A stretch of 29,108 bases of DNA from Dehalococcoidales bacterium. Its GTDB lineage: Bacteria > Chloroflexota > Dehalococcoidia > Dehalococcoidales > DAOVUZ01. The notes beneath the pieces are model-generated. The model saw nothing but the letters and a program-made list of their open reading frames with translations, was not told where the DNA came from and searched no databases. Position numbers and translations under genes: made by a program. This document shows positions 914 to 29,108 of this stretch, piece by piece. Within the stretch, counting starts at the first letter, position 1. The number at the start of each line of letters is the position of its first letter. The stretch covers positions 1 through 29,108 of the forward strand of contig DAOVUZ010000001.1 in NCBI GenBank assembly GCA_030632305.1, in the 5' to 3' direction.

Positions 914-2188
914 TCAGACATTGATGAACTTATTATAGAACGCGATATGCCTCTCAGCGATGGTCTCCCAGCTGAAGTAATTATGAATGGTCTTGCATCC
1001 CTCTTGTCCCATACTTGCGGCCAGCTGTCGGTCTTTCAACAGCATAATCAACGCCTCAGCAAACTCACTCACACTGGAAGGATCTACTAACAAACCATTC
1101 TCTCCTGACGAGATAGCATCCCTTATCCCTCCAAATTTGGAAGCAATAACTGCTTTGCCACAGGCCATAGCATCCAACGCGGTCATACCGAATGGTTCAA
1201 AAATTGAAGGCAGTACGAACAACTCCGACTGCTGATAGGAGGGAACAAGTAGTTTATCTGGCACATAACCCACGATGTGCACCCTACTGGGCATGCCCTT
1301 CTCGTTTATGATCCTCCTCATGGTAGCCAGTACTTCCAGCTCTCTCTGCTGCGGTTCGGGTGACCCGCCACCGATAACAAGGTGCACGTCGAGTACCGCC
1401 TTTCTCACGATATCAAAGGCATTGAGCAGAAGGTCATGCCCTTTATTAGAGTCGATCCGACTCAGGCAAAAAATATATTTATCCGGTAGGCCAGTTTTCA
1501 CCTTCCTCTCATCGGGCCTGAGCGGGTGGAAAACGTGAACATCCACACCTGGGGGGATAACAACAACATTGTCTGACGCAAACCTGTACAACTGCTCTAC
1601 TTTTTTTCTTTGGACTTTGGTTGTCACTATTTGCGCCTTCACCGACCTGAAGATTCGGAGTTCCTCTGATATTCGACGGTTGAACTTGTACTTGTTCTCC
1701 ATCTCTTTCGGTTCTCCCCCCATCTGCTCACGCTTCCACGCTCCCAAGGAATGGGCAGTGAAGAAGGTTGGTTTGCCAAACGCTTTTGCTACATCGAGTG
1801 AAACAATCCCCCCATCTACGTAATGGCCATGGAAGAGGTCATAGCGGATGTTCTTTTCCTGAATGAATCTTATCACATTCTCTGCCAGTTCCGGCAGAAT
1901 GTCGTAGATCTCCTCTTTGGGGATGAACTCCCACGGTCCGGCTCGTACCCGGATTACCCTCACACCGGGACAGTCCGGCATAGGGTCAATTTGCTTCTTG
2001 GAGGAATCAAACCACCGTGTATAAATATCGACTTTTACTTTGCATTTGGAGAGGGCTTTAGCCAACTGGAGCACATAGACGACCTGTCCCCCAGTATCTG
2101 TCCTCCCCAGTTGCGGAACTGGGTCAAAATATCCATGTGTGCTCAGCATGCAGATATTTTTAATTCTGCTATCTGCTTTTCCCCTCAT
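914..2188 (-). CDS. GT4 glycosyltransferase, sucrose-phosphate synthase / mannosylfructose-phosphate synthase (MfpsA)-like; glycosyltransferase domain only
   Basis: N-terminal STHGY...LGRTDTGGQVVYVL motif of the SPS/SuS/MfpsA group; HGHY, HSLG, SRIDSNKG and EPFGMTALDA motifs. No HAD domain. Confidence 0.85.
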   Translation of the reverse strand: MRGKADSRIKNICMLSTHGYFDPVPQLGRTDTGGQVVYVLQLAKALSKCKVKVDIYTRWFDSSKKQIDPMPDCPGVRVIRVRAGPWEFIPKEEIYDILPELAENVIRFIQEKNIRYDLFHGHYVDGGIVSLDVAKAFGKPTFFTAHSLGAWKREQMGGEPKEMENKYKFNRRISEELRIFRSVKAQIVTTKVQRKKVEQLYRFASDNVVVIPPGVDVHVFHPLRPDERKVKTGLPDKYIFCLSRIDSNKGHDLLLNAFDIVRKAVLDVHLVIGGGSPEPQQRELEVLATMRRIINEKGMPSRVHIVGYVPDKLLVPSYQQSELFVLPSIFEPFGMTALDAMACGKAVIASKFGGIRDAISSGENGLLVDPSSVSEFAEALIMLLKDRQLAASMGQEGCKTIHNYFSWETIAERHIAFYNKFINV

Positions 2189-2834
2189 TTTTAATTACCT
2201 TCTTCACCCTGTAATTGTCAGTTACAATAATGTCAGCTCGAGGCTTATGAGATGATATAATTCTGTGCTCGATCCTAAGTATCCTTTCGAGAAGTTCATC
2301 CTGTTCTTCTCTTAACCTTAGTTTGCGTATTTCTCTGGTATCAATGTAAGTTCGATCAATGAAAATACGCTGGTGAACATTTTTCAAGATGGTAGTATAG
2401 GTTCCATCAACTATGATTGTCTTAACCCCTTCAACTTTGACCACTTCTTCAGTGATTCTATCCTCATCAAAGATTACTAATGGTTTATCAATTTCATTTT
2501 CCCCATCGATGATGTCACGAAGATTCTGGTCGAGCACCTCAAGGTAAACTTCAGATAGCCCAACATGACTGATATCCTTTCTGCGCATCTCAGCATTTGT
2601 TCTTGGAGGGTACACGAAGTAATCATCCTGTTGGAGAATAATAGTTCTGATGCCCTTTTCAAAAAGAAACTCGAAGATAGCTGCAGCGATTTCTGACTTC
2701 CCGCTACCGGATTCACCGGCAATCGCAATAATGAATTTACTCTGCGCCTTCACAATTTGCGGGAGAAGCAATTCCGTTATGCTGTGCGCCGCCTTAACAT
2801 GCCCTTCTTGTACAACAAGCTTATCTCCCTTCAT
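2169..2834 (-). CDS. P-loop kinase, phosphoribulokinase/uridine kinase/pantothenate kinase family; substrate unknown
   Basis: Walker A GESGSGKS, plus QQDDYF and IIVDGTY. I prefer ATG 2834 (GGTGG upstream) over GTG 2843. Overlaps the GT4 start by 20 nt. Confidence 0.75.
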   Translation of the reverse strand: MKGDKLVVQEGHVKAAHSITELLLPQIVKAQSKFIIAIAGESGSGKSEIAAAIFEFLFEKGIRTIILQQDDYFVYPPRTNAEMRRKDISHVGLSEVYLEVLDQNLRDIIDGENEIDKPLVIFDEDRITEEVVKVEGVKTIIVDGTYTTILKNVHQRIFIDRTYIDTREIRKLRLREEQDELLERILRIEHRIISSHKPRADIIVTDNYRVKKVIKNEGKSR

Positions 2835-2871
2835 CCACACCACCTATCCCAGAATGATACTCCCACAATTT

Positions 2872-2950
2872 GGTATAACTTGTTCATATGCGCATTGTCG
2901 ATGTAAATGTCTTTGCGTGAGCTTCCGTGATTGTTTGCCCTTATTATACC
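2872..2950 (-). ncRNA. Candidate degenerate c-di-GMP-I (GEMM)-like riboswitch or other structured leader
   Basis: GGGCAAAC, GGAA, ACGCAAAG, UCGAC..UAUGA and AGUU occur in GEMM order, but the inner P2 and P3 stems do not pair well. Confidence 0.3.
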
Positions 2951-2951
2951 A
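2943..2951 (-). promoter_or_regulatory. Extended -10 element for the kinase-GT4 unit
   Basis: Minus strand reads TGGTATAAT about 110 nt upstream of the start. No -35 at 17 bp. Confidence 0.5.
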
Positions 2952-3121
2952 CTGTTGTTAAAAGCCGACCCAGTATCAATTTATAGCTATCTAGCCAAGG
3001 TTTGCAGGCAATTGCGGAGGTATAGTGCAATAATCAGTGCACATGACGCTATTTTGTCAATCTCCTTCGTATCACCTTTGTAGGGACCAATATGCCGCAC
3101 AACGGAGTAAACAAAACGAGT

Positions 3122-4669
3122 TCAAGCTTCCCACACCACCTTACCACCAATAATGGTCATCTCCACTTTAATCTCTTTTATCTGCTCCGGGGGTGATTTA
3201 ATAGGGTCACCGCTTAATACCACAATATCAGCCAGCTTACCCCGGGTAATGGAGCCCTTTATGCCCTCTTCAAAAGAGGCGTAGGCAGCATTTATGGTAT
3301 ACATAGCCAGCGCCTGTCGAGGTGAAATACACTCCTGGGGTAGAAGCTGCTGCCCCGATTCAGCCTGTCTGGTGACAGCGGCATATATGCCGACCAACGG
3401 GTTATTAGGAACTATCGGAGAATCTGAGCTACCGGCGACAATCAAGCCACTATCGTGGAAGGACTCAATTCGGTATAACAACGGGAACTTATTTGAAGTT
3501 AGCTCTCCCAGATACCTTTCACCACTATAATAGAGGAAGGGGGGTTGAGGAACCACCACCACCTGAAGCTTGCTTAATCGCTTAAGCAGGTGGGGAGGGC
3601 ACTCAGCACAATGCTCTATGCGGTGGCGTCGTCCAGTTTGAGGAAGATGACTATGGGCATATTCCAGGGCAGTGATGGCTGCCTCCACTGTGCTTTGCTC
3701 AATGGCGTGAATGGCAAGCTGAAATCCAGCCCGGTGAACATTAAATGCCTGCTGGTTTAACTCCGACTGCGGAGGATACAGTTGCCCCGTGGTTTCACTC
3801 AGTATTATCTTTACCCCGCCCAGGCGCAACTGGCTATCACCATAGCCCGGAGCCAAGCCTGCCTCCTGAAACTGGCTCAGGGCTTCAGCACCAAACATCA
3901 TAGATAGCCGACTCTTCAGTTTGCCGGTGTCCTCAAATTGGTGAAAGGCTTGCCAATGACTGAAACCATTGCCGATAGTTGCCTCCTGGAGAGAGGTAAT
4001 GCCCAGAGACAGGTAACGCCGATTGGCTAGGGCTATGCCCTGTGCTACCTCCTCTTCCGATAAAGGGGGTAATACCCTCTCCCTGACATAATCCAACATC
4101 TCAAAAAGGACACCGGTTGGTTCTCCGGTGCCTAGGTCTCTATCAATAAGCCCGCCAGGTGGTTCCTGGGTTTCCCTGGTAATGCCAGCCAGGGAGAGTG
4201 CCAGGCTGTTGAGCATGCCGGCATGCAGGGAGCAGTGAGCCAGGACTACCGGGTGGTGAGGTGCCACCTCATCTATATCCCAGCGGGTGGGGTGGCGCTT
4301 CTCGGCAAGATAAAACTCATTATAGCCAGCGCCAGTGAGCCATTTGCCTGGTGGGGTGTTTTGAGCTTGGTGGCGGATGGCTGCCTTTATATCGCTAATA
4401 GAGCTAACTGATGACGGGCTCAAGTCAATACTTAACTGCTTTCTTATCAAGAAGAAGATATGGCAATGGGCATCATTAAAACCAGGCACCACCGTCTTAC
4501 CCTGGCAATCAACTATTCTGGTTTTTGCCCCCGTAACCGACTCCAGCTCTTCCCTACCGGCAACCAGTAAGATTTTGTCACCAGTAATAGCCACCAGCCC
4601 AGCGGCAGGTTGCCCGGCATCCATCGTCAGCACATTAGCATTTTTGAGGATAATATCAGCGATTGGCAT
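3122..4669 (-). CDS. YtcJ/NfdA-like metal-dependent amidohydrolase (amidohydrolase_3)
   Basis: PGFNDAHCH, AIHAIEQ, RHRIEHC, GSSDSP and GKLADIVVL motifs. Start placed at ATG 4669 (MPIADIILKNANV). Confidence 0.88.
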   Translation of the reverse strand: MPIADIILKNANVLTMDAGQPAAGLVAITGDKILLVAGREELESVTGAKTRIVDCQGKTVVPGFNDAHCHIFFLIRKQLSIDLSPSSVSSISDIKAAIRHQAQNTPPGKWLTGAGYNEFYLAEKRHPTRWDIDEVAPHHPVVLAHCSLHAGMLNSLALSLAGITRETQEPPGGLIDRDLGTGEPTGVLFEMLDYVRERVLPPLSEEEVAQGIALANRRYLSLGITSLQEATIGNGFSHWQAFHQFEDTGKLKSRLSMMFGAEALSQFQEAGLAPGYGDSQLRLGGVKIILSETTGQLYPPQSELNQQAFNVHRAGFQLAIHAIEQSTVEAAITALEYAHSHLPQTGRRHRIEHCAECPPHLLKRLSKLQVVVVPQPPFLYYSGERYLGELTSNKFPLLYRIESFHDSGLIVAGSSDSPIVPNNPLVGIYAAVTRQAESGQQLLPQECISPRQALAMYTINAAYASFEEGIKGSITRGKLADIVVLSGDPIKSPPEQIKEIKVEMTIIGGKVVWEA

Positions 4670-15923: not shown

Positions 15924-17762
15924 TTGAGCGACCTCAATAGCATACTGCACCAGGTTACCAAGCCCGCCCGCTATACCGGCGGTGAGTGGAATAGCAGAGT
16001 GAAGGATTGGGACAAAACCCAAATCAGGATTGCCCTCAGCTACCCCGACCTATATGAAATAGGCATGTCCAATATGGCACTGCCTATCCTCTATGAGCTA
16101 CTTAATAGCCAACCGGATGTTCTTGCTGAAAGGGTCTTTGCCCCATGGCCGGATATGGAAGCAGCAATAAAGACAGCCGGTATCCCTCTGTTTAGCCTTG
16201 AATCGAAACACCAGCTAAAGGAGTTTGATATTATCGGCTTCTCCCTGGGCTACGAACTTACCTACACCAATGTATTGAATATGCTTCACCTGGCTCAAAT
16301 ACCAGTCCTAGCCTCGGAGAGAAATGACTCCCACCCAATAGTAATAGCTGGCGGTAGCTGTGTTCTCAACCCAGAGCCTATGGCTGACTTTATTGACTTC
16401 TTTATAATTGGGGATGGTGAAGAAGTGTTGCTTGAGCTACTTGATAGCTTCCGAAATTGGAAAGGGCACAGAGCAACCAGAAAAGACCTGTTTCACCAGG
16501 TGGCGGCTATCCCTGGTATTTATGTGCCCAATCTATATCAGGTGGAATACCAGGCTGACGGCTTACTTAAAAGCATTACCCCCACTGTGCCACAGGCTAA
16601 GCCCACAATTCAGCGGCGGGTAGTAACCAAGCTACCTCCCCCACCCACCAAACCGGTCGTTCCCTACATTGAGGTAATTCAGGACCGGGGAGCAATAGAG
16701 ATTCAGCGGGGTTGCAGCCGTGGTTGCCGCTTTTGCCAGGCAGGAGTTATATATCGCCCGGTGCGCGAGCGCCCACAGCAAGAGGTGCTACAGGCAGTAG
16801 GAGAGCTTATTACCAACTGCGGCTATGATGAGGTCTCTCTGGTCTCACTGAGCACCAGTGACTACCCCGGCATTGACCAGATGTTGACTGGACTATCCCA
16901 CCGTTACCAGAATCTTACCCTGTCACTACCCAGCCTCCGCATTGATGGCTTTTCAGTAAAACTGGTGGATTCTCTGCCATCCCACAGGAAGACAGGGCTC
17001 ACCTTCGCCGCCGAGGCTGGAAGCGAAAGACTACGGCGAATCATCAATAAGACCGTCTCCGAGGATGACCTCCTGAAAACGGCTGCCGCTGCCTTTAACC
17101 GGGGCTGGACAAGCCTTAAGCTATATTTTATGCTCGGCTTACCCACAGAAACTATTGATGATATCGAGGGCATTATCCAGCTAGTAGATAAAGTCCGCTC
17201 CATAGGCAGGAAGGCTACAGGGAAAAAACCCCAGATAAGAATCAGCCTGTCAACCTTTGTCCCCAAGCCACATACACCCTTTCAGTGGGTAGCTCAGGAA
17301 GGCGAACAACAGCTAGCTTCCAAGCACGAACTCCTGAAGCAGGGGTTACACCGAAAAGGGATCAGGCTATCCTGGCAGGACCCTAAAGTCAGCCTGCTGG
17401 AAGCAGTATTGTCCCGGGGAGATAGACGATTAGGTAAAATTATCTACCGTGCCTGGCAACTAGGCTCAACCTTTGATGCCTGGAATGAGCACTTTAATTA
17501 TGAAAACTGGCTTGGTGCCTTTAATGAGACCGGGCTCAACCCCAGCTTCTATGCCCAGCGGGAGCGTCCCCTGGATGAGCTCCTGCCTTGGGCTCATATT
17601 GATGTCGGACCAACCACAGCTTTCCTGAAGCAGGAATATCAGCGAGCTATAGCTGGCGAAGAAACCCCTGACTGCCGCTATAACGCTTGTAATGCCTGCG
17701 GACTCCAGCACTGGCAACCAGCCTGCCAGCAAAAATATCAGGGGCTCAGTCAAAGCAAGTGA
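15924..17762 (+). CDS. TIGR03960-family B12-binding radical SAM protein
   Basis: [40 protein letters not shown] and [11 protein letters not shown] motifs; C-terminal Cys cluster. Confidence 0.9.
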
Positions 17763-20184
17763 TAGCCACTACCTTATCCTTATGACTAAGCTTCATCAGC
17801 CTCACCCCCTGGGTGCTCCTGCCCTGAATAGTAATGCCCTGTCTGGGGTCCTGCTCCTTCACCGGAGTGCGGATAACAATTCCCTCTGCAGATATAATCA
17901 TTGCCTGTTGAGATAGGGAAACCAGCATGGCACCAGCAATATCACCCGCTTTTTCAATCAGATTAAAAGTCCTGACCCCGCTGCCAGCCCGGTGTTGACG
18001 TGGATAGTCACCAACCGGGGTGAGTTTACCAAAACCTCCGGTGGTAACGACTAAAAGGAACTTATCCGGGTAGGCAATATCCATACCGACCACCTGGTCA
18101 CCAGGTAGAAGGCGGATACCACACACCCCACCACTGGTTCTGGAGGTAGCCCTTAAACCAGATACAGCAAACCTGATTGACTGCCCTTTTTGAGTTATTA
18201 ATATAACATCATCCTGGTCAGTAGCTAAACTTGCCGCCACCAATTCATCACCCTCCTCCAAATCCATGGCGATAAGCCCGCTACTGCGCACTGAAGCAAA
18301 CCTATCCAGAGCCGTCTTTTTTATCTCCCCCCGGCAAGTAGCCATCAATAAGTAGGCATCTGGACTAAAATCAGCCACCACTACCAGAGCCGTGACCCTC
18401 TCACCCTCGGTGATAGGGAAAAGGTTAACCACAGCCATCCCTTTAGCAGTGCGGGAGCTCTCAGATGGGATTTCATAGCACCTGAGGCAAAAGACCTTGC
18501 CTCGGTTGGTGAACAGCAATAGATTATCATGGGTATCAGCCACCGCCAGAAGTCTTACTGCATCTGCCTCCCTGGTTACCATGCCAATAATACCCCTGCC
18601 ACCACGATGTTGTGGCTTGTAACTACGAGATGGTACCCTCTTGATAAATCCTCTATCACTGAGGGTTACCACCACTCTTTGATGGGGGACAAGGTCCTCC
18701 TCATCAAATTCCACCACCCCTTCCTCACTTATCTCGGTTCGCCGTGGGTCGCTATATTTAGACTTTAACTCGTCCACCTCCTCCTTTATCAGCAGAAACA
18801 TTTTCTTCGGGTTAGCCAGAAGGTCTTCCAGATAGGCAATGGTTCTTATCACCTCAGTATACTCATCAATTATCTTGCGTCGCTCTAGATTAGCTAGCCG
18901 GCGCAACTGCATATCAAGAATGGCTTGCGCCTGAATCTGGGATAAGCTAAAACCCGTCATAAGGTTACGACGAGCCGTCTCAGCAGTTTCAGATTTCCGT
19001 ATAGTAGCAATCACCTCATCTATGTTGTCTAAAGCAATTTTAAGCCCCTCCAGGATATGAGCCCTCGCCTTAGCCACTTTCAGCTCAAACCGAGAGCGCC
19101 GGGTGATAACCTCGTAGCGGAAATTTATGTAATACCGAAGCGCCTCCTTAAGGCTAATTACCCGGGGCTGTCCATCAACCAGAGCCACCATATTGACGAA
19201 GAAAGCTGACTGCATCGATGTATACTTATACAGGTTATTTAAGACCTGCTCCGGTTGAGCTTCTCTCCTCAGCTCAATAACAATACGCATCCCCTGGCGG
19301 TCTGACTCATCGCGTAGCTCACTGATGCCCCCGATTTTCTTATCCTTGACCAGCTCGGCTATCCTCTCCACCAGGGCAGCCTTATTCGTCTGATAGGGAA
19401 GCTCGGTAACAATTATTTGACGGCGTCCAACCCCAAGCACATCTCCAAAATGAACCTTAGCCCGAACTACTATTCGGCCATGCCCGGTAGCATAGGCATT
19501 CTTAATCCCCTCCTGCCCCAGAATGATGCCAGCGGTAGGGAAATCAGGCCCTTTAACAAATTGAGTAAGTTCATCAACCGTGGCTTCGGGATTATCAATA
19601 AGGTAAGAGATGGCATCACACACCTCCCCCAGATTATGAGGGGGGATATTGGTAGCCATCCCGACAGCAATTCCAGAACTACCATTAACCAGTAAATTGG
19701 GCAGGCGGGTGGGTAAAACTGAAGGCTCGTTAAGGCTATCATCAAAGTTTGGCACAAAGTCGACAGTATCCTTATCAATGTCAACCAACATCTGCTCGGA
19801 AATGGGAGCCAGGCGTACCTCGGTATAACGCATAGCTGCCGGGGGATCATTATCCATGCTGCCAAAATTACCCTGACCATCAACCAGGAGATACCGCATC
19901 GAGAAATCCTGCGCCATACGCACCATGGCATCATAAACCGAGGTGTCACCGTGAGGATGGTATTTACCCAACACCTCACCAACAACACGGGCACTCTTCT
20001 TGTGAGGGCCAGTATGACTTAGCCCCAGACCAGCCATAGCATAAAGAATACGCCGGTGTACCGGCTTTAACCCGTCCCTGACATCAGGTAAGGCACGGGA
20101 AACGATGACGCTCATCGCATAGTCAAGGTAAGAGCTCCTCATCTCATCTTCTATATTTACTGGTCTAGTCTTTCCTAAAACCAT
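17746..20184 (-). CDS. gyrA: DNA gyrase subunit A
   Basis: [16 protein letters not shown], catalytic AAMRYTE, GyrA box QHRGGRG and beta-pinwheel repeats. Confidence 0.98.
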
Positions 20185-26852: not shown

Positions 26853-26912
26853 AGGAGGATTTAGTGGAAGATAGGTCGGCATAGGAGAATTTAGTGGGAG
26901 ATAGGTCGGCAC
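26853..26912 (+). repeat. 30-bp tandem duplication of the dnaA translation-initiation region
   Basis: AGGAGGATTTAGTGGAAGATAGGTCGGCAT / AGGAGAATTTAGTGGGAGATAGGTCGGCAC, 27/30 identical. Confidence 0.9.
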
Positions 26913-28234
26913 AAGAAATCTGGGAAGCTGCTCTGGGTGAGTTGCAAATTCAAGTCAACAAGCCAAACTACCGGACGTGGCTGGAAAAAACTATAGGCTT
27001 AAGTTATCAGGATAATCAGTTTGTTATTGGTGTCCCTAATACCTTTGCCGCTGAATATTTAGACCAGAACCTCCGCTCTTTAATTGAAAAAACTCTTGTT
27101 GGGCTTACCCACTGTGACGCCGAAGTCCTCTTTCAAGTAGATACCCACCATCAAGATACCTCACATAGCTATGGTAGCCGGGAGGGAATCCCCCTCGCCA
27201 CACAAGCAAGCCCCCCCAGATTCAACCCAAAATATACCTTTGATTCCTTCGTTGCCGGTGACAGTAACCACTTAGCTTACACTGCTGCCCAGGGGGTAGC
27301 TGAAAACCCGGGACACAGCCATAACCCGCTATTTATATATGGGGAGGTGGGTTTAGGCAAGACACACTTATTGCATGCTATCGGCCATGTAGCTCTAGCC
27401 AGCCATATGCAGGTGCTTTATGTTAGCGCCGAGCAGTTTACCCATGAGTTTATAAACGCTATTCAACAGCGGAAAACAGAGGAATTCCGCAACAAATATA
27501 GAAGTGTTGATATATTGTTGATTGACGACATCCATTTTATCAGCGGCAAGGAGCACACCGAGGAAAGTTTTTTCCATACCTTTAATGAGCTACATAACGC
27601 TAACCGCCAAATTGCTATTACCAGCAACCACCCCCCCAAATCCATACCCCTGTTAGACGAGAGGCTACGCTCTCGTTTTGAATGGGGGTTAATTGCTGGT
27701 ATCCAATCACCTGATTTTGAAACCCGCCTGGCTATTTTGCGAGCTAAGGCTGAAGAAAAAGGAGTAGCTGTCACTCAAGATGTACTGGAGTTTATTACTC
27801 ACCGAAGTCAACATAACATAAGGGAATTAGAGGGCTGTCTAAACCGGGTTATTGCTTATGCCAAGCTGGTTAGAGCCCTTCTTACCCCAGAGATAGCCGC
27901 TAAGGCACTTGAGGATATAGCCGACAAGGAGCCTAAAAATGCCCTTATTACTCCCAGCTTAATAATAGAAGCAGTGGCCAACAGCTTCCAGCTAACTCCC
28001 CCTGACTTAAGAAGCCGGAAAAGAGATAAGGAAACAGCTTTAGCCCGGCAAGTGGCAATGTATCTAATCAAACAGGAAACCAATTACTCACTGGCCCAAA
28101 TTGGCAAGGAACTGGGAGATAGAGATCATTCAACTGTTACCCACGCTTACGGGAAGATAGCTGGTGATATTGATGCCAGCCCTTCTTTAAAGCGAAAAAT
28201 CCTTGACATCCAGCAAAATATCTCCCCCAGGTAA
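26894..28234 (+). CDS. dnaA: Chromosomal replication initiator DnaA
   Basis: FNPKYTFDSFV, NPLFIYG..GLGKTHL, LLIDDIHF, RLRSRFEWGL, NIRELEG and RDHSTV motifs. Confidence 0.98.
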   Translation: MGDRSAQEIWEAALGELQIQVNKPNYRTWLEKTIGLSYQDNQFVIGVPNTFAAEYLDQNLRSLIEKTLVGLTHCDAEVLFQVDTHHQDTSHSYGSREGIPLATQASPPRFNPKYTFDSFVAGDSNHLAYTAAQGVAENPGHSHNPLFIYGEVGLGKTHLLHAIGHVALASHMQVLYVSAEQFTHEFINAIQQRKTEEFRNKYRSVDILLIDDIHFISGKEHTEESFFHTFNELHNANRQIAITSNHPPKSIPLLDERLRSRFEWGLIAGIQSPDFETRLAILRAKAEEKGVAVTQDVLEFITHRSQHNIRELEGCLNRVIAYAKLVRALLTPEIAAKALEDIADKEPKNALITPSLIIEAVANSFQLTPPDLRSRKRDKETALARQVAMYLIKQETNYSLAQIGKELGDRDHSTVTHAYGKIAGDIDASPSLKRKILDIQQNISPR

Positions 28235-28555: not shown

Positions 28556-29108
28556 ATGTTTGACTTAGTGGAAATAGTGGTAACAGCGGGTGGTGGTGGT
28601 GACGGAGTGGTCAGCTTTCGGCGGGAGAAGTATGTCCCCTTTGGCGGTCCTGATGGTGGTGATGGCGGCGATGGTGGTGATGTAGTGATTGTGGCTGATT
28701 CTGGTATTAGCCACCTGCGTATATTTGAGCACAAAAGATTTTATAGAGCGGCTGATGGTAAGAAGGGCAAGGGGAAAAAGAAGCACGGCAGGAAAGGGGA
28801 GAACCTGATATTGATGGTGCCGGTGGGGACCGTGGTCTCCGCTAAGACACAAATCAACGGTGATGCCGTTATCGCTGATTTGGAGCAGCATGGTCAGCAG
28901 GCAGTGGTAGCTAAGGGTGGCAAAGGGGGGTTGGGCAATACCCATTTTGCTTCGTCTATCAATCAAGCGCCCCAGATTGCGCAGAAGGGGGAGGCCGGGG
29001 AGGAGTATTCCATAATAATGGAGCTGAGGCTTATTGCTGATGTTGGCATTATCGGTTATCCTAACGTAGGTAAGTCTACCATGCTGGCAGCGGCTTCAGC
29101 CGCTAAAC
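28556..29108 (+). CDS. obgE: GTPase ObgE/CgtA, 3'-truncated by the window edge; not in the ORF track
   Basis: Read by hand: MFDLVEIVVTAGGGGDGVVSFRREKYVPFGGPDGGDGGDGG...ELRLIADVGIIGYPNVGKST. Confidence 0.97.
   Translation, partial: MFDLVEIVVTAGGGGDGVVSFRREKYVPFGGPDGGDGGDGGDVVIVADSGISHLRIFEHKRFYRAADGKKGKGKKKHGRKGENLILMVPVGTVVSAKTQINGDAVIADLEQHGQQAVVAKGGKGGLGNTHFASSINQAPQIAQKGEAGEEYSIIMELRLIADVGIIGYPNVGKSTMLAAASAAK

Follow-up and report, generated by a model that had tools for sequence, protein, structure and literature searches.

The first 29,108 nucleotides of contig DAOVUZ010000001.1 from a Dehalococcoidales bacterium (the window, meaning the whole stretch of DNA analysed) carry a minus-strand unit of two overlapping genes, recognised by open reading frame (ORF) calling and translation. 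The upstream gene (2169..2834) encodes a P-loop kinase of 221 aa with an ATG start, and the downstream gene (914..2188, ATG at 2188) encodes a family 4 glycosyltransferase (GT4) of 424 aa from the clade of sucrose-phosphate synthase (SPS) and MshA. What the pair suggests is a so far unstudied mode of sucrose use or recycling and not a new stress-protectant pathway. With a probability of about one half, it would combine a sucrose 6F-kinase with a reversible SPS-type GT4, working either by a "phosphorylate, then split" route or as a sucrose recycling loop. The metabolite shared by the kinase and its partner enzymes would most simply be sucrose 6F-phosphate (S6FP), because the GT4 has the acceptor residue set of SPS, other family members partner S6FP phosphorylases, and the nearest relative of the kinase is a sucrose kinase.

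In the proposed scheme, the kinase would convert sucrose and ATP into S6FP and ADP. Its target would be the primary hydroxyl on the fructofuranosyl moiety, a position comparable to the ribofuranoside 5'-OH that uridine kinase phosphorylates. The GT4 would interconvert S6FP plus a nucleoside diphosphate (NDP) and NDP-glucose plus fructose-6-phosphate. With both genes putatively co-transcribed and translationally coupled, free sucrose, either imported or from an earlier osmolyte store, would give two activated sugars for one ATP. The net conversion (sucrose + NDP + ATP to NDP-glucose + fructose-6-phosphate + ADP) would be that of sucrose synthase plus fructokinase, except that phosphorylation would precede transfer and that the enzymes differ. 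In the loop version, the GT4 would run forward and, with a generic Cof-type phosphatase encoded on contig C62 of the same genome, produce sucrose that the kinase would then recycle. That the GT4 physiologically cleaves kinase-made S6FP, which would make an undescribed third sucrose-splitting route, besides invertase or phosphorylase and sucrose synthase, with the bond kept as NDP-glucose, is a possible but distinctly more tentative part of this proposal. The route could even be the NDP-glucose source of the cell, since no PF00483 nucleotidyl-transferase, GlgC included, was detected in the 83%-complete assembly.

Sucrose kinase is known so far only as a domain of the protein AgaSK. In gut bacteria, kinases have in a few cases been linked to S6FP phosphorylases before (PMC6521584; PMC7178133), and a literature search found no paper on the stand-alone kinase family, its scale or its coupling to SPS-like GT4s. 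Where S6FP originates in bacteria that have no sucrose phosphotransferase system (PTS) is a question not answered in the GH13_18 literature, and the kinase family offers a testable answer. Its members are routinely annotated as uridine kinase and stand beside, or are fused to, S6FP phosphorylases and SPS-like transferases. Confirmation would correct thousands of annotations and define a stand-alone bacterial sucrose kinase; it would also give SPS-type enzymes a part in the breakdown or turnover of sucrose by sediment anaerobes, with a bearing on carbon flow where sucrose is abundant.

Two kinds of partner for one kinase family

A scan of one genome per species gave 410 relatives of the kinase, of which the best 80 loci were kept. 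A GT4 gene lies on the same strand within 400 nt of the kinase in 59 of these best 80 loci of the 410, a widespread and ancient linkage, far beyond chance, that bears out the co-occurrence anticipated in the first-pass annotation of this DNA. Of the 59, 29 encode an orthologue of the window GT4 (identity of 50% or more) and 30 a more SPS-like type of 470-500 aa; the remaining loci are either too short to judge (6) or hold other partners (15). The survey covers WOR-3/Stahlbacteria, Zixibacteria, Chloroflexota, Acidobacteriota, Bacteroidota, Gemmatimonadota, Cloacimonadota, Thermotogota, Spirochaetota, Actinomycetota, several proteobacterial classes and others, more than 15 phyla in all. Around pairs of the window type no other neighbour is conserved, so kinase and GT4 travel as a two-gene unit. 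The two are also naturally fused, with the GT4 first in P0126 and the kinase first in P0284 and P0389. Proteobacterial pairs are flanked by glgC (glucose-1-phosphate adenylyltransferase, above cut-off) and by a HIT/DUF4922 gene resembling nucleotide-sugar phosphorylases. The HIT-like product could free glucose-1-phosphate from the nucleotide sugar, in which case it would form, together with the GT4, the equivalent of a phosphorylase. In Thermotogota and Bipolaricaulota, the pair has a DeoR regulator on one side and a sugar ABC importer on the other.

The kinase passes the gathering score of the Pfam family PRK (PF00485; 27.9 bits, cut-off 22) and does not reach the cut-offs of the Udk equivalogs NF004018 and TIGR00235 (51.6 and 50.8 bits against 180 and 220.3). 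Its recurring neighbours are GT4, GH13_18, GH100-like and GH36 enzymes and sugar transporters; no pyrimidine-salvage enzyme is among the annotated recurring neighbour families. The label "uridine kinase", which the first-pass annotation had already doubted, is almost certainly wrong. An AlphaFold2 (AF2) model built from 75 sequences reached a pLDDT of 92.5 (65.7 with 20 close sequences) and has the full Udk-type architecture, with β-hairpin and arginine lid. Foldseek matched this model to PanK, UCK2, PRK and FrcK-like structures at TM 0.6-0.7 and probability 1.0, with no subfamily standing out, and the best sequence match among solved structures is an archaeal phosphoribulokinase. The kinase has the fold, the Walker A motif, the catalytic Asp following strand 2 and the arginine-rich lid of uridine-cytidine kinase, phosphoribulokinase and type I pantothenate kinase; it differs from them in sequence (14-25% identity), in scores that stay below all equivalog cut-offs and in gene context.

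At E ≤ 1e-3, the family amounts to 679 representative clusters, spread over more than 15 phyla; viral contigs, when scanned, yielded none. In a phylogeny of 93 kinases, members linked to a phosphorylase form one clade (SH-aLRT 100) and those linked to a GT4 the other half, with short branches between them. Across the 93 kinases, 41 positions show at least 95% conservation whatever the partner. Beyond the P-loop, the conserved polar residues are H12, Q69-D70-D71-Y72-F73, N80, R84, E95, K117, E130, T145-Y146, T166, R170, R173, R175 and E189-H190. Only 8 positions are specific to the GT4-linked or the phosphorylase-linked group, mostly by conservative exchanges, and this pattern argues for one substrate across the family.

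The second kind of partner is seen in the Anaerolineae loci L073 and L063, where the kinase adjoins a homologue (E 2e-222 and 3e-191) of PDB 6S9V, the sucrose-6F-phosphate phosphorylase of T. thermosaccharolyticum (TtSPP). A reverse survey, in which metagenome contigs were scanned with the S6FP phosphorylase, gave 80 loci, 8 of them without upstream sequence, leaving 72 informative. The P-loop kinase is adjacent to the TtSPP-type phosphorylase in 56 of the 72, directly upstream in 54; a PfkB kinase of 318 aa takes the same upstream slot in 15, and a single locus has neither. The two kinases never occur together in the surveyed phosphorylase loci. From locus to locus, then, the partner of the P-loop kinase switches between a GT4 and an S6FP phosphorylase. 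PfkB loci that lack the P-loop kinase (L110, L114, L123, L138, L151-L159, L161, L162, L166) encode PfkB proteins of 296-334 aa; the gene lies just downstream of the phosphorylase in L138, and the order is GH36-PfkB-phosphorylase in L114. The PfkB protein of this slot scores best on IolC-type models (the fructokinase model gives 139 bits, cut-off 450) and may be a second, non-homologous sucrose kinase. Locus L144 has an APH-family phosphotransferase nearby instead of the P-loop kinase.

In TtSPP, residues R134 and H344 bind the 6F-phosphate according to mutagenesis, Y201 holds a sulfate there in the crystal, and plain sucrose phosphorylases carry Tyr at the His position (PMC6720575). Both R134 and H344 are invariant in 82 of 82 phosphorylases, with Tyr at position 201 in 79 and Phe in 3. 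The phosphorylase loci are those of sucrose, raffinose or fructan uptake, with the arrangements GH36-kinase-phosphorylase-MFS, LacI-TonB receptor-kinase-phosphorylase-MFS and GH32-kinase-phosphorylase, and with ABC importers with MalK. The transporters found in them are of MFS, ABC or TonB types, with no PTS transporter among them, so S6FP would have to be made by a cytoplasmic kinase; the P-loop kinase is the only candidate source in the kinase-phosphorylase loci. In ten phosphorylase loci, the P-loop kinase has a ScrK-like ROK fructokinase as its immediate neighbour (ScrK 284 bits, next-best family 111), and since these operons already hold a fructokinase, the P-loop kinase is unlikely to be another. 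The GH36-kinase-phosphorylase-MFS loci L126, L128 and L137 correspond to the AgaSK-SPP locus of R. gnavus with its kinase unfused (PMC6521584; PMC7688924). As in the TtSPP operon, which has a PfkB kinase, and in the RgSPP-AgaSK arrangement, a kinase thus stands beside an enzyme acting on S6FP. The window GT4 would differ from the phosphorylases in releasing the glucosyl group as NDP-glucose and not as glucose-1-phosphate.

Further genes recur around the phosphorylase loci. A divergent paralogue of the kinase (~30% identity, 100-116 bits; L099:1-600, L107:2448-3086, L112:789-1424, L113:790-1425) lies upstream of the ScrK-like gene, giving the operon order paralogue-ROK-kinase-phosphorylase. A CE7 acetyl-xylan-esterase gene (AXE1) repeatedly flanks kinase and phosphorylase (L063:8961-9935, L129:6495-7469, also L115, L121, L130 and L131), which hints at the use of acylated sucrose-type sugars. 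A distant GT4, 23% identical to that of the window, lies ~2.2 kb upstream of the kinase in L094 and L095 (802-2091 in both). These two loci, which have a GH32-kinase-phosphorylase operon, are the only ones of the phosphorylase survey that hold both partner types.

The kinase also occurs with other sugar-active enzymes. In seven representative clusters it is fused to a distant GH100-like domain, resembling alkaline/neutral invertases (P0292, P0294, P0332, P0338, P0349, P0370, P0395), and in P0345 to an enzyme resembling GH13_31 oligo-1,6-glucosidase; loci L010, L048 and L051 contain unfused GH100-like, kinase and SSF transporter genes. A family of ~720 aa is encoded directly 3' of the kinase in Spirochaetota, Actinomycetota and Chloroflexota (L042:3812-5938, L049:2883-5102, L053:4914-7049, L054:10602-12791, L068:3636-5795, L075:10648-12951, L082:10653-12788). 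It has no Pfam or NCBIfam match, shows a weak profile match with GH13-like motifs to the T. maritima maltodextrin glycosyltransferase, and is often found beside ABC sugar-binding proteins. This family is probably a new α-glucoside-active enzyme working with the kinase.

Nearest relatives of the kinase and the glycosyltransferase

By profile comparison, the nearest characterised relative of the kinase is the sucrose kinase (SK) domain of AgaSK. The R. gnavus protein consists of a GH36 α-galactosidase and a C-terminal kinase domain of ~212 aa, which contains a Walker A motif and for which uridine kinase served as modelling template; the isolated kinase domain phosphorylates sucrose with ATP (PMC7688924). 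The gene that follows encodes a strictly S6FP-specific phosphorylase (PMC6521584). The AgaSK of Agathobacter rectalis (946 aa, annotated "alpha-galactosidase" and followed by gtfA) was reached by a tblastn search of plasmids with a GH36-linked member of the kinase family; AgaSK was absent from the matches of a word-index search, a representative search and the ESM Atlas. The E. rectale protein is, according to the paper, more than 90% identical to the characterised RgAgaSK. Aligned with the family profile by hhalign, the A. rectalis SK domain matches end-to-end with a probability of 99.7% (E 1.5e-25, 25% identity). At equal profile and database size, the family profile gives 97.7 bits for this domain and less for the other kinases compared: archaeal phosphoribulokinase 58.2, human UCK2 43.9, T. 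thermophilus Udk 34-36 and the FrcK-like "fructokinase" 3C8U 22.8.

Both AgaSK SK (Bruel 2011; PMC7688924; PMC6521584) and the window kinase have the P-loop Udk/PRK fold and a similar length (~212 and 221 aa). They hold in common, as does the rest of the family, D70, Y72, P77, N80, R84, G92, E95, K117, T145, three lid arginines and E189. Family members also take the operon position of the AgaSK kinase domain, following GH36 and preceding an S6FP phosphorylase (L126, L128, L137). Unlike AgaSK SK, the window kinase is not part of a larger protein, carries an additional conserved helix at its N-terminus (G3, D4, H12) and is paired with an SPS-like GT4 instead of a phosphorylase.

The GT4 matches the Pfam families Glycos_transf_1 and Glyco_transf_4 and the sucrose-synthase N domain. 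Its best PDB matches are T. elongatus SPS (6KIH, 2e-49), C. glutamicum MshA (3C48, 2e-47) and H. orenii SPS (2R60, 1e-43), and it does not reach the cut-off of TIGR03449, the model of MshA, a D-inositol-3-phosphate glycosyltransferase (226.9 against 462.5 bits). Its residues G33-G34-Q35 correspond to the GGQ of SPS, which hydrogen-bonds the fructose hydroxyls (TeSPS A48/Q51, HoSPS G33/Q35); MshA has GGM. K91, Y123, S147, K152 and R172 align with the acceptor-phosphate ligands of SPS, as assigned in the SPS structure paper (PMC7264703), and H146 and E331 with the catalytic His and Glu. In 56 kinase-linked GT4s of both types, G33-G34-Q35, K91, H122, H146-S147, K152, R172, R244, K249 and E331 are invariant, and position 123 is Tyr in 51 and Phe in 5. 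Since the acceptor and phosphate-ligand residues of SPS are near-invariant here, the predicted acceptor is a phosphorylated, fructose-6-phosphate-like compound.

The window GT4 therefore resembles SPS 6KIH (T. elongatus Tll1590) and 2R60 in its GT-B GT4 fold, its GGQ motif and its Lys/Tyr/Ser/Lys/Arg phosphate ligands, and it keeps the catalytic His of HSLG and Glu of EPFG found in bacterial SPS. It differs from bacterial SPS in being only ~30% identical and in having no sucrose-phosphate phosphatase, no such dedicated partner being present as gene or domain in the unit or window. Its partner is a P-loop kinase, whereas that of SPS is usually a HAD phosphatase or a PfkB fructokinase, and the direction proposed for it is at least partly that of cleavage. 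The SPS reaction is reversible and drawn forward only by sucrose-phosphate phosphatase, and cyanobacterial SPSs use ADP- and GDP-glucose besides UDP-glucose (PMC9971976).

Points against the proposal and competing readings

Several observations weigh against a sucrose 6F-kinase acting with a reversible SPS-type GT4. No sucrose transporter adjoins the pair here or in most type-A loci. The GH100-like-kinase fusions (7 clusters), the kinase-GH13_31 α-glucosidase fusion and the displacement of the kinase by PfkB in phosphorylase loci all fit a fructokinase at least as simply. With the AgaSK SK domain the kinase shares just 23-25% identity, and several family-invariant residues are altered there (D71N, H190Q, G144W). 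The GT4 falls below the cut-off of the SPS equivalog-domain model TIGR02472 (201 against 576 bits) and scores slightly higher on MshA, and the automatic JGI label of window-GT4 orthologues is mannosylfructose-phosphate synthase (MfpsA), whose phosphatase partner is mfppA; no HAD partner was seen. To our knowledge, a physiological reverse run of SPS has been demonstrated in no organism. Finally, RgSK is reported to phosphorylate C6 of the glucose, not of the fructose, in sucrose (PMC7688924). This report does not fit with S6FP-specific partners, and the 6F regiochemistry of the kinase is therefore given as putative.

The alternative that survives best, itself unlikely, is that the kinase is a non-PfkB fructokinase feeding fructose-6-phosphate to the GT4, for ordinary sucrose synthesis completed by a generic phosphatase; elsewhere it would mop up fructose from invertase-like or α-glucosidase partners. 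PfkB fructokinases adjoin sps genes in Methylomicrobium and Halothermothrix, and PfkB kinases hold the same operon slot in 15 phosphorylase loci. The GH100-like and GH13_31 fusions, whose products would include fructose, the common fold of 3C8U and the Cof-type phosphatase on C62 likewise agree with this alternative. A fructokinase would, however, have no role beside an S6FP phosphorylase, which yields fructose-6-phosphate directly, yet 56 of 72 such loci carry the kinase and their phosphorylases keep the phosphate-binding site. Ten of the operons already have a ScrK-like fructokinase next to it, the PfkB of the slot is by its score no canonical fructokinase itself, and on the family profile 3C8U lies far below the SK domain (22.8 against 97.7 bits).

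According to the first-pass annotation, the kinase might make an unusual phospho-acceptor (for instance a glycerate, polyol or inositol phosphate) that the GT4 would glycosylate to an undescribed compatible solute. In favour of this, the GT4 stays under every equivalog cut-off and is marginally best on MshA, kinase and GT4 have spread as a self-contained unit among saline and sediment metagenome-assembled genomes of many phyla, and the unit lacks a dedicated phosphatase. The idea nevertheless fares poorly and is now quite unlikely: the acceptor-site residues of the GT4 are those of SPS, including Gln35, the kinase has its active-site positions in common with the kinases that stand beside S6FP phosphorylases, and its nearest characterised relative is a sucrose kinase. 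No neighbour is indicative of glycerate, glycerol or inositol, and neither GpgS nor GpgP was seen among the annotated neighbour families. The genome survey contained two GH13_18 neighbours, both of them S6FP phosphorylases and not glucosylglycerate or glucosylglycerol phosphorylases; for this reason, a reading as glycerate 3-kinase in glucosylglycerate metabolism was rejected.

It is improbable that the kinase is a new phosphofructokinase, a PRK-like 1-kinase for fructose-6-phosphate that would pull the products of S6FP cleavage into glycolysis. Its best solved-structure match, the archaeal phosphoribulokinase, acts on C1 of a ketose phosphate, and the kinase beside TtSPP was first annotated as a phosphofructokinase (PMC7178133). 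Such an activity would leave S6FP without a source in the non-PTS loci, the family is ~40 bits nearer to the sucrose kinase domain than to PRK, and a fusion of phosphofructokinase and SPS would have no clear logic.

The first-pass annotation had also suggested that the kinase moves the phosphate of the product to ADP (S6FP + ADP to sucrose + ATP), replacing the phosphatase and conserving energy. The reaction is the one favoured here, in the unit there is indeed no phosphatase, and it is the direction that does not hold. Hydrolysis of ATP gives about -30 kJ/mol and that of a sugar 6-phosphate ester about -14 kJ/mol. By such textbook values, phosphate transfer from ATP to a sugar hydroxyl runs downhill by ~17 kJ/mol; the reverse is uphill by as much, would leave only trace sucrose at cellular ATP/ADP and so could not accumulate a solute. 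The other contexts of the family are moreover catabolic uptake loci, and this direction is very improbable. Equally remote is a true uridine/cytidine kinase next to a glycosyltransferase by chance, which would agree with the Pfam family name and the JGI "uridine kinase" labels of homologues, but not with the low Udk scores, the adjacency or fusion to GT4, GH13_18, GH100-like and GH13 enzymes conserved across phyla, or neighbours devoid of annotated pyrimidine salvage.

The locus and its genome

The kinase stop codon lies inside the start of the GT4 gene, and the coordinates give an overlap of 20 nt (2169..2188, minus strand), implying translational coupling. A GTG at 2843 is an alternative kinase start by ORF reading; the ATG is supported by the N-terminus MKGDKL, kept in 19 of 19 aligned homologues. 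The GT4 start at 2188 is likewise supported, as nine homologues can be aligned from residue 1. In relatives, the spacing between the two genes ranges from an overlap of a few bases to a gap of ~100 nt. The first-pass description of a PRK/UK-family kinase overlapping an SPS/MfpsA-type GT4 by 20 nt is accordingly retained.

The unit is flanked by a 278-nt leader (2844-3121) and a 286-nt trailer. Direct reading of the leader identified TGGTATAAT (2943..2951, minus strand), a perfect extended -10 element ~110 nt 5' of the kinase ATG and a tentative promoter candidate for the two-gene unit. A two-hexamer consensus promoter scan missed it because there is no good -35. No Rfam family, and hence no riboswitch such as c-di-GMP-I (GEMM), was found by cmscan of 2700-3300 with permissive filters and E ≤ 10.

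Pfam scans covered the 24 window ORFs of at least 181 aa, all except the cut ORF 28556-29107, and found neither a HAD phosphatase nor a PfkB kinase, in agreement with what had first been noted for unit and window. The genome is very small, its assembly comprising 762 kb in 122 contigs. A whole-genome scan gave a single Hydrolase_3/S6PP match, the C62 protein, which is the only HAD-IIB hydrolase found in the genome and is of the Cof type (182 bits on TIGR00099). It stays under the cut-off of the sucrose-phosphate phosphatase subfamily (79.6 against 107 bits) but is a candidate for the cognate phosphatase elsewhere that the first-pass annotation named as a refuting condition. Two PfkB matches, both ribokinase-like, lie on contigs C43 and C61. 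When five pair-carrying genomes were scanned with the sucrose-phosphate phosphatase model TIGR01485, the cyanobacterial control itself fell below the cut-off, so that the scan carries no weight either way. A tblastn search of the genome with the S6FP phosphorylase, the GH13-like c10 protein, the GH100-like enzyme, GlgC and the sugar-binding protein gave no matches. Together with the missing PF00483 domain, this fits an NDP-glucose supply role for the pair and is not proof of it.

On the same strand, an amidohydrolase gene lies upstream of the unit, and a radical-SAM-like fragment lies downstream. The remaining window genes are nadE, recA, recX, rny, ymdB, plsY, asd, gyrA (17746-20184), aspartokinase, fmt and dnaA (26894-28234), so the window represents origin-proximal core chromosome. 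The cumulative GC skew has its minimum near 28 kb, which fits an oriC just upstream of dnaA.

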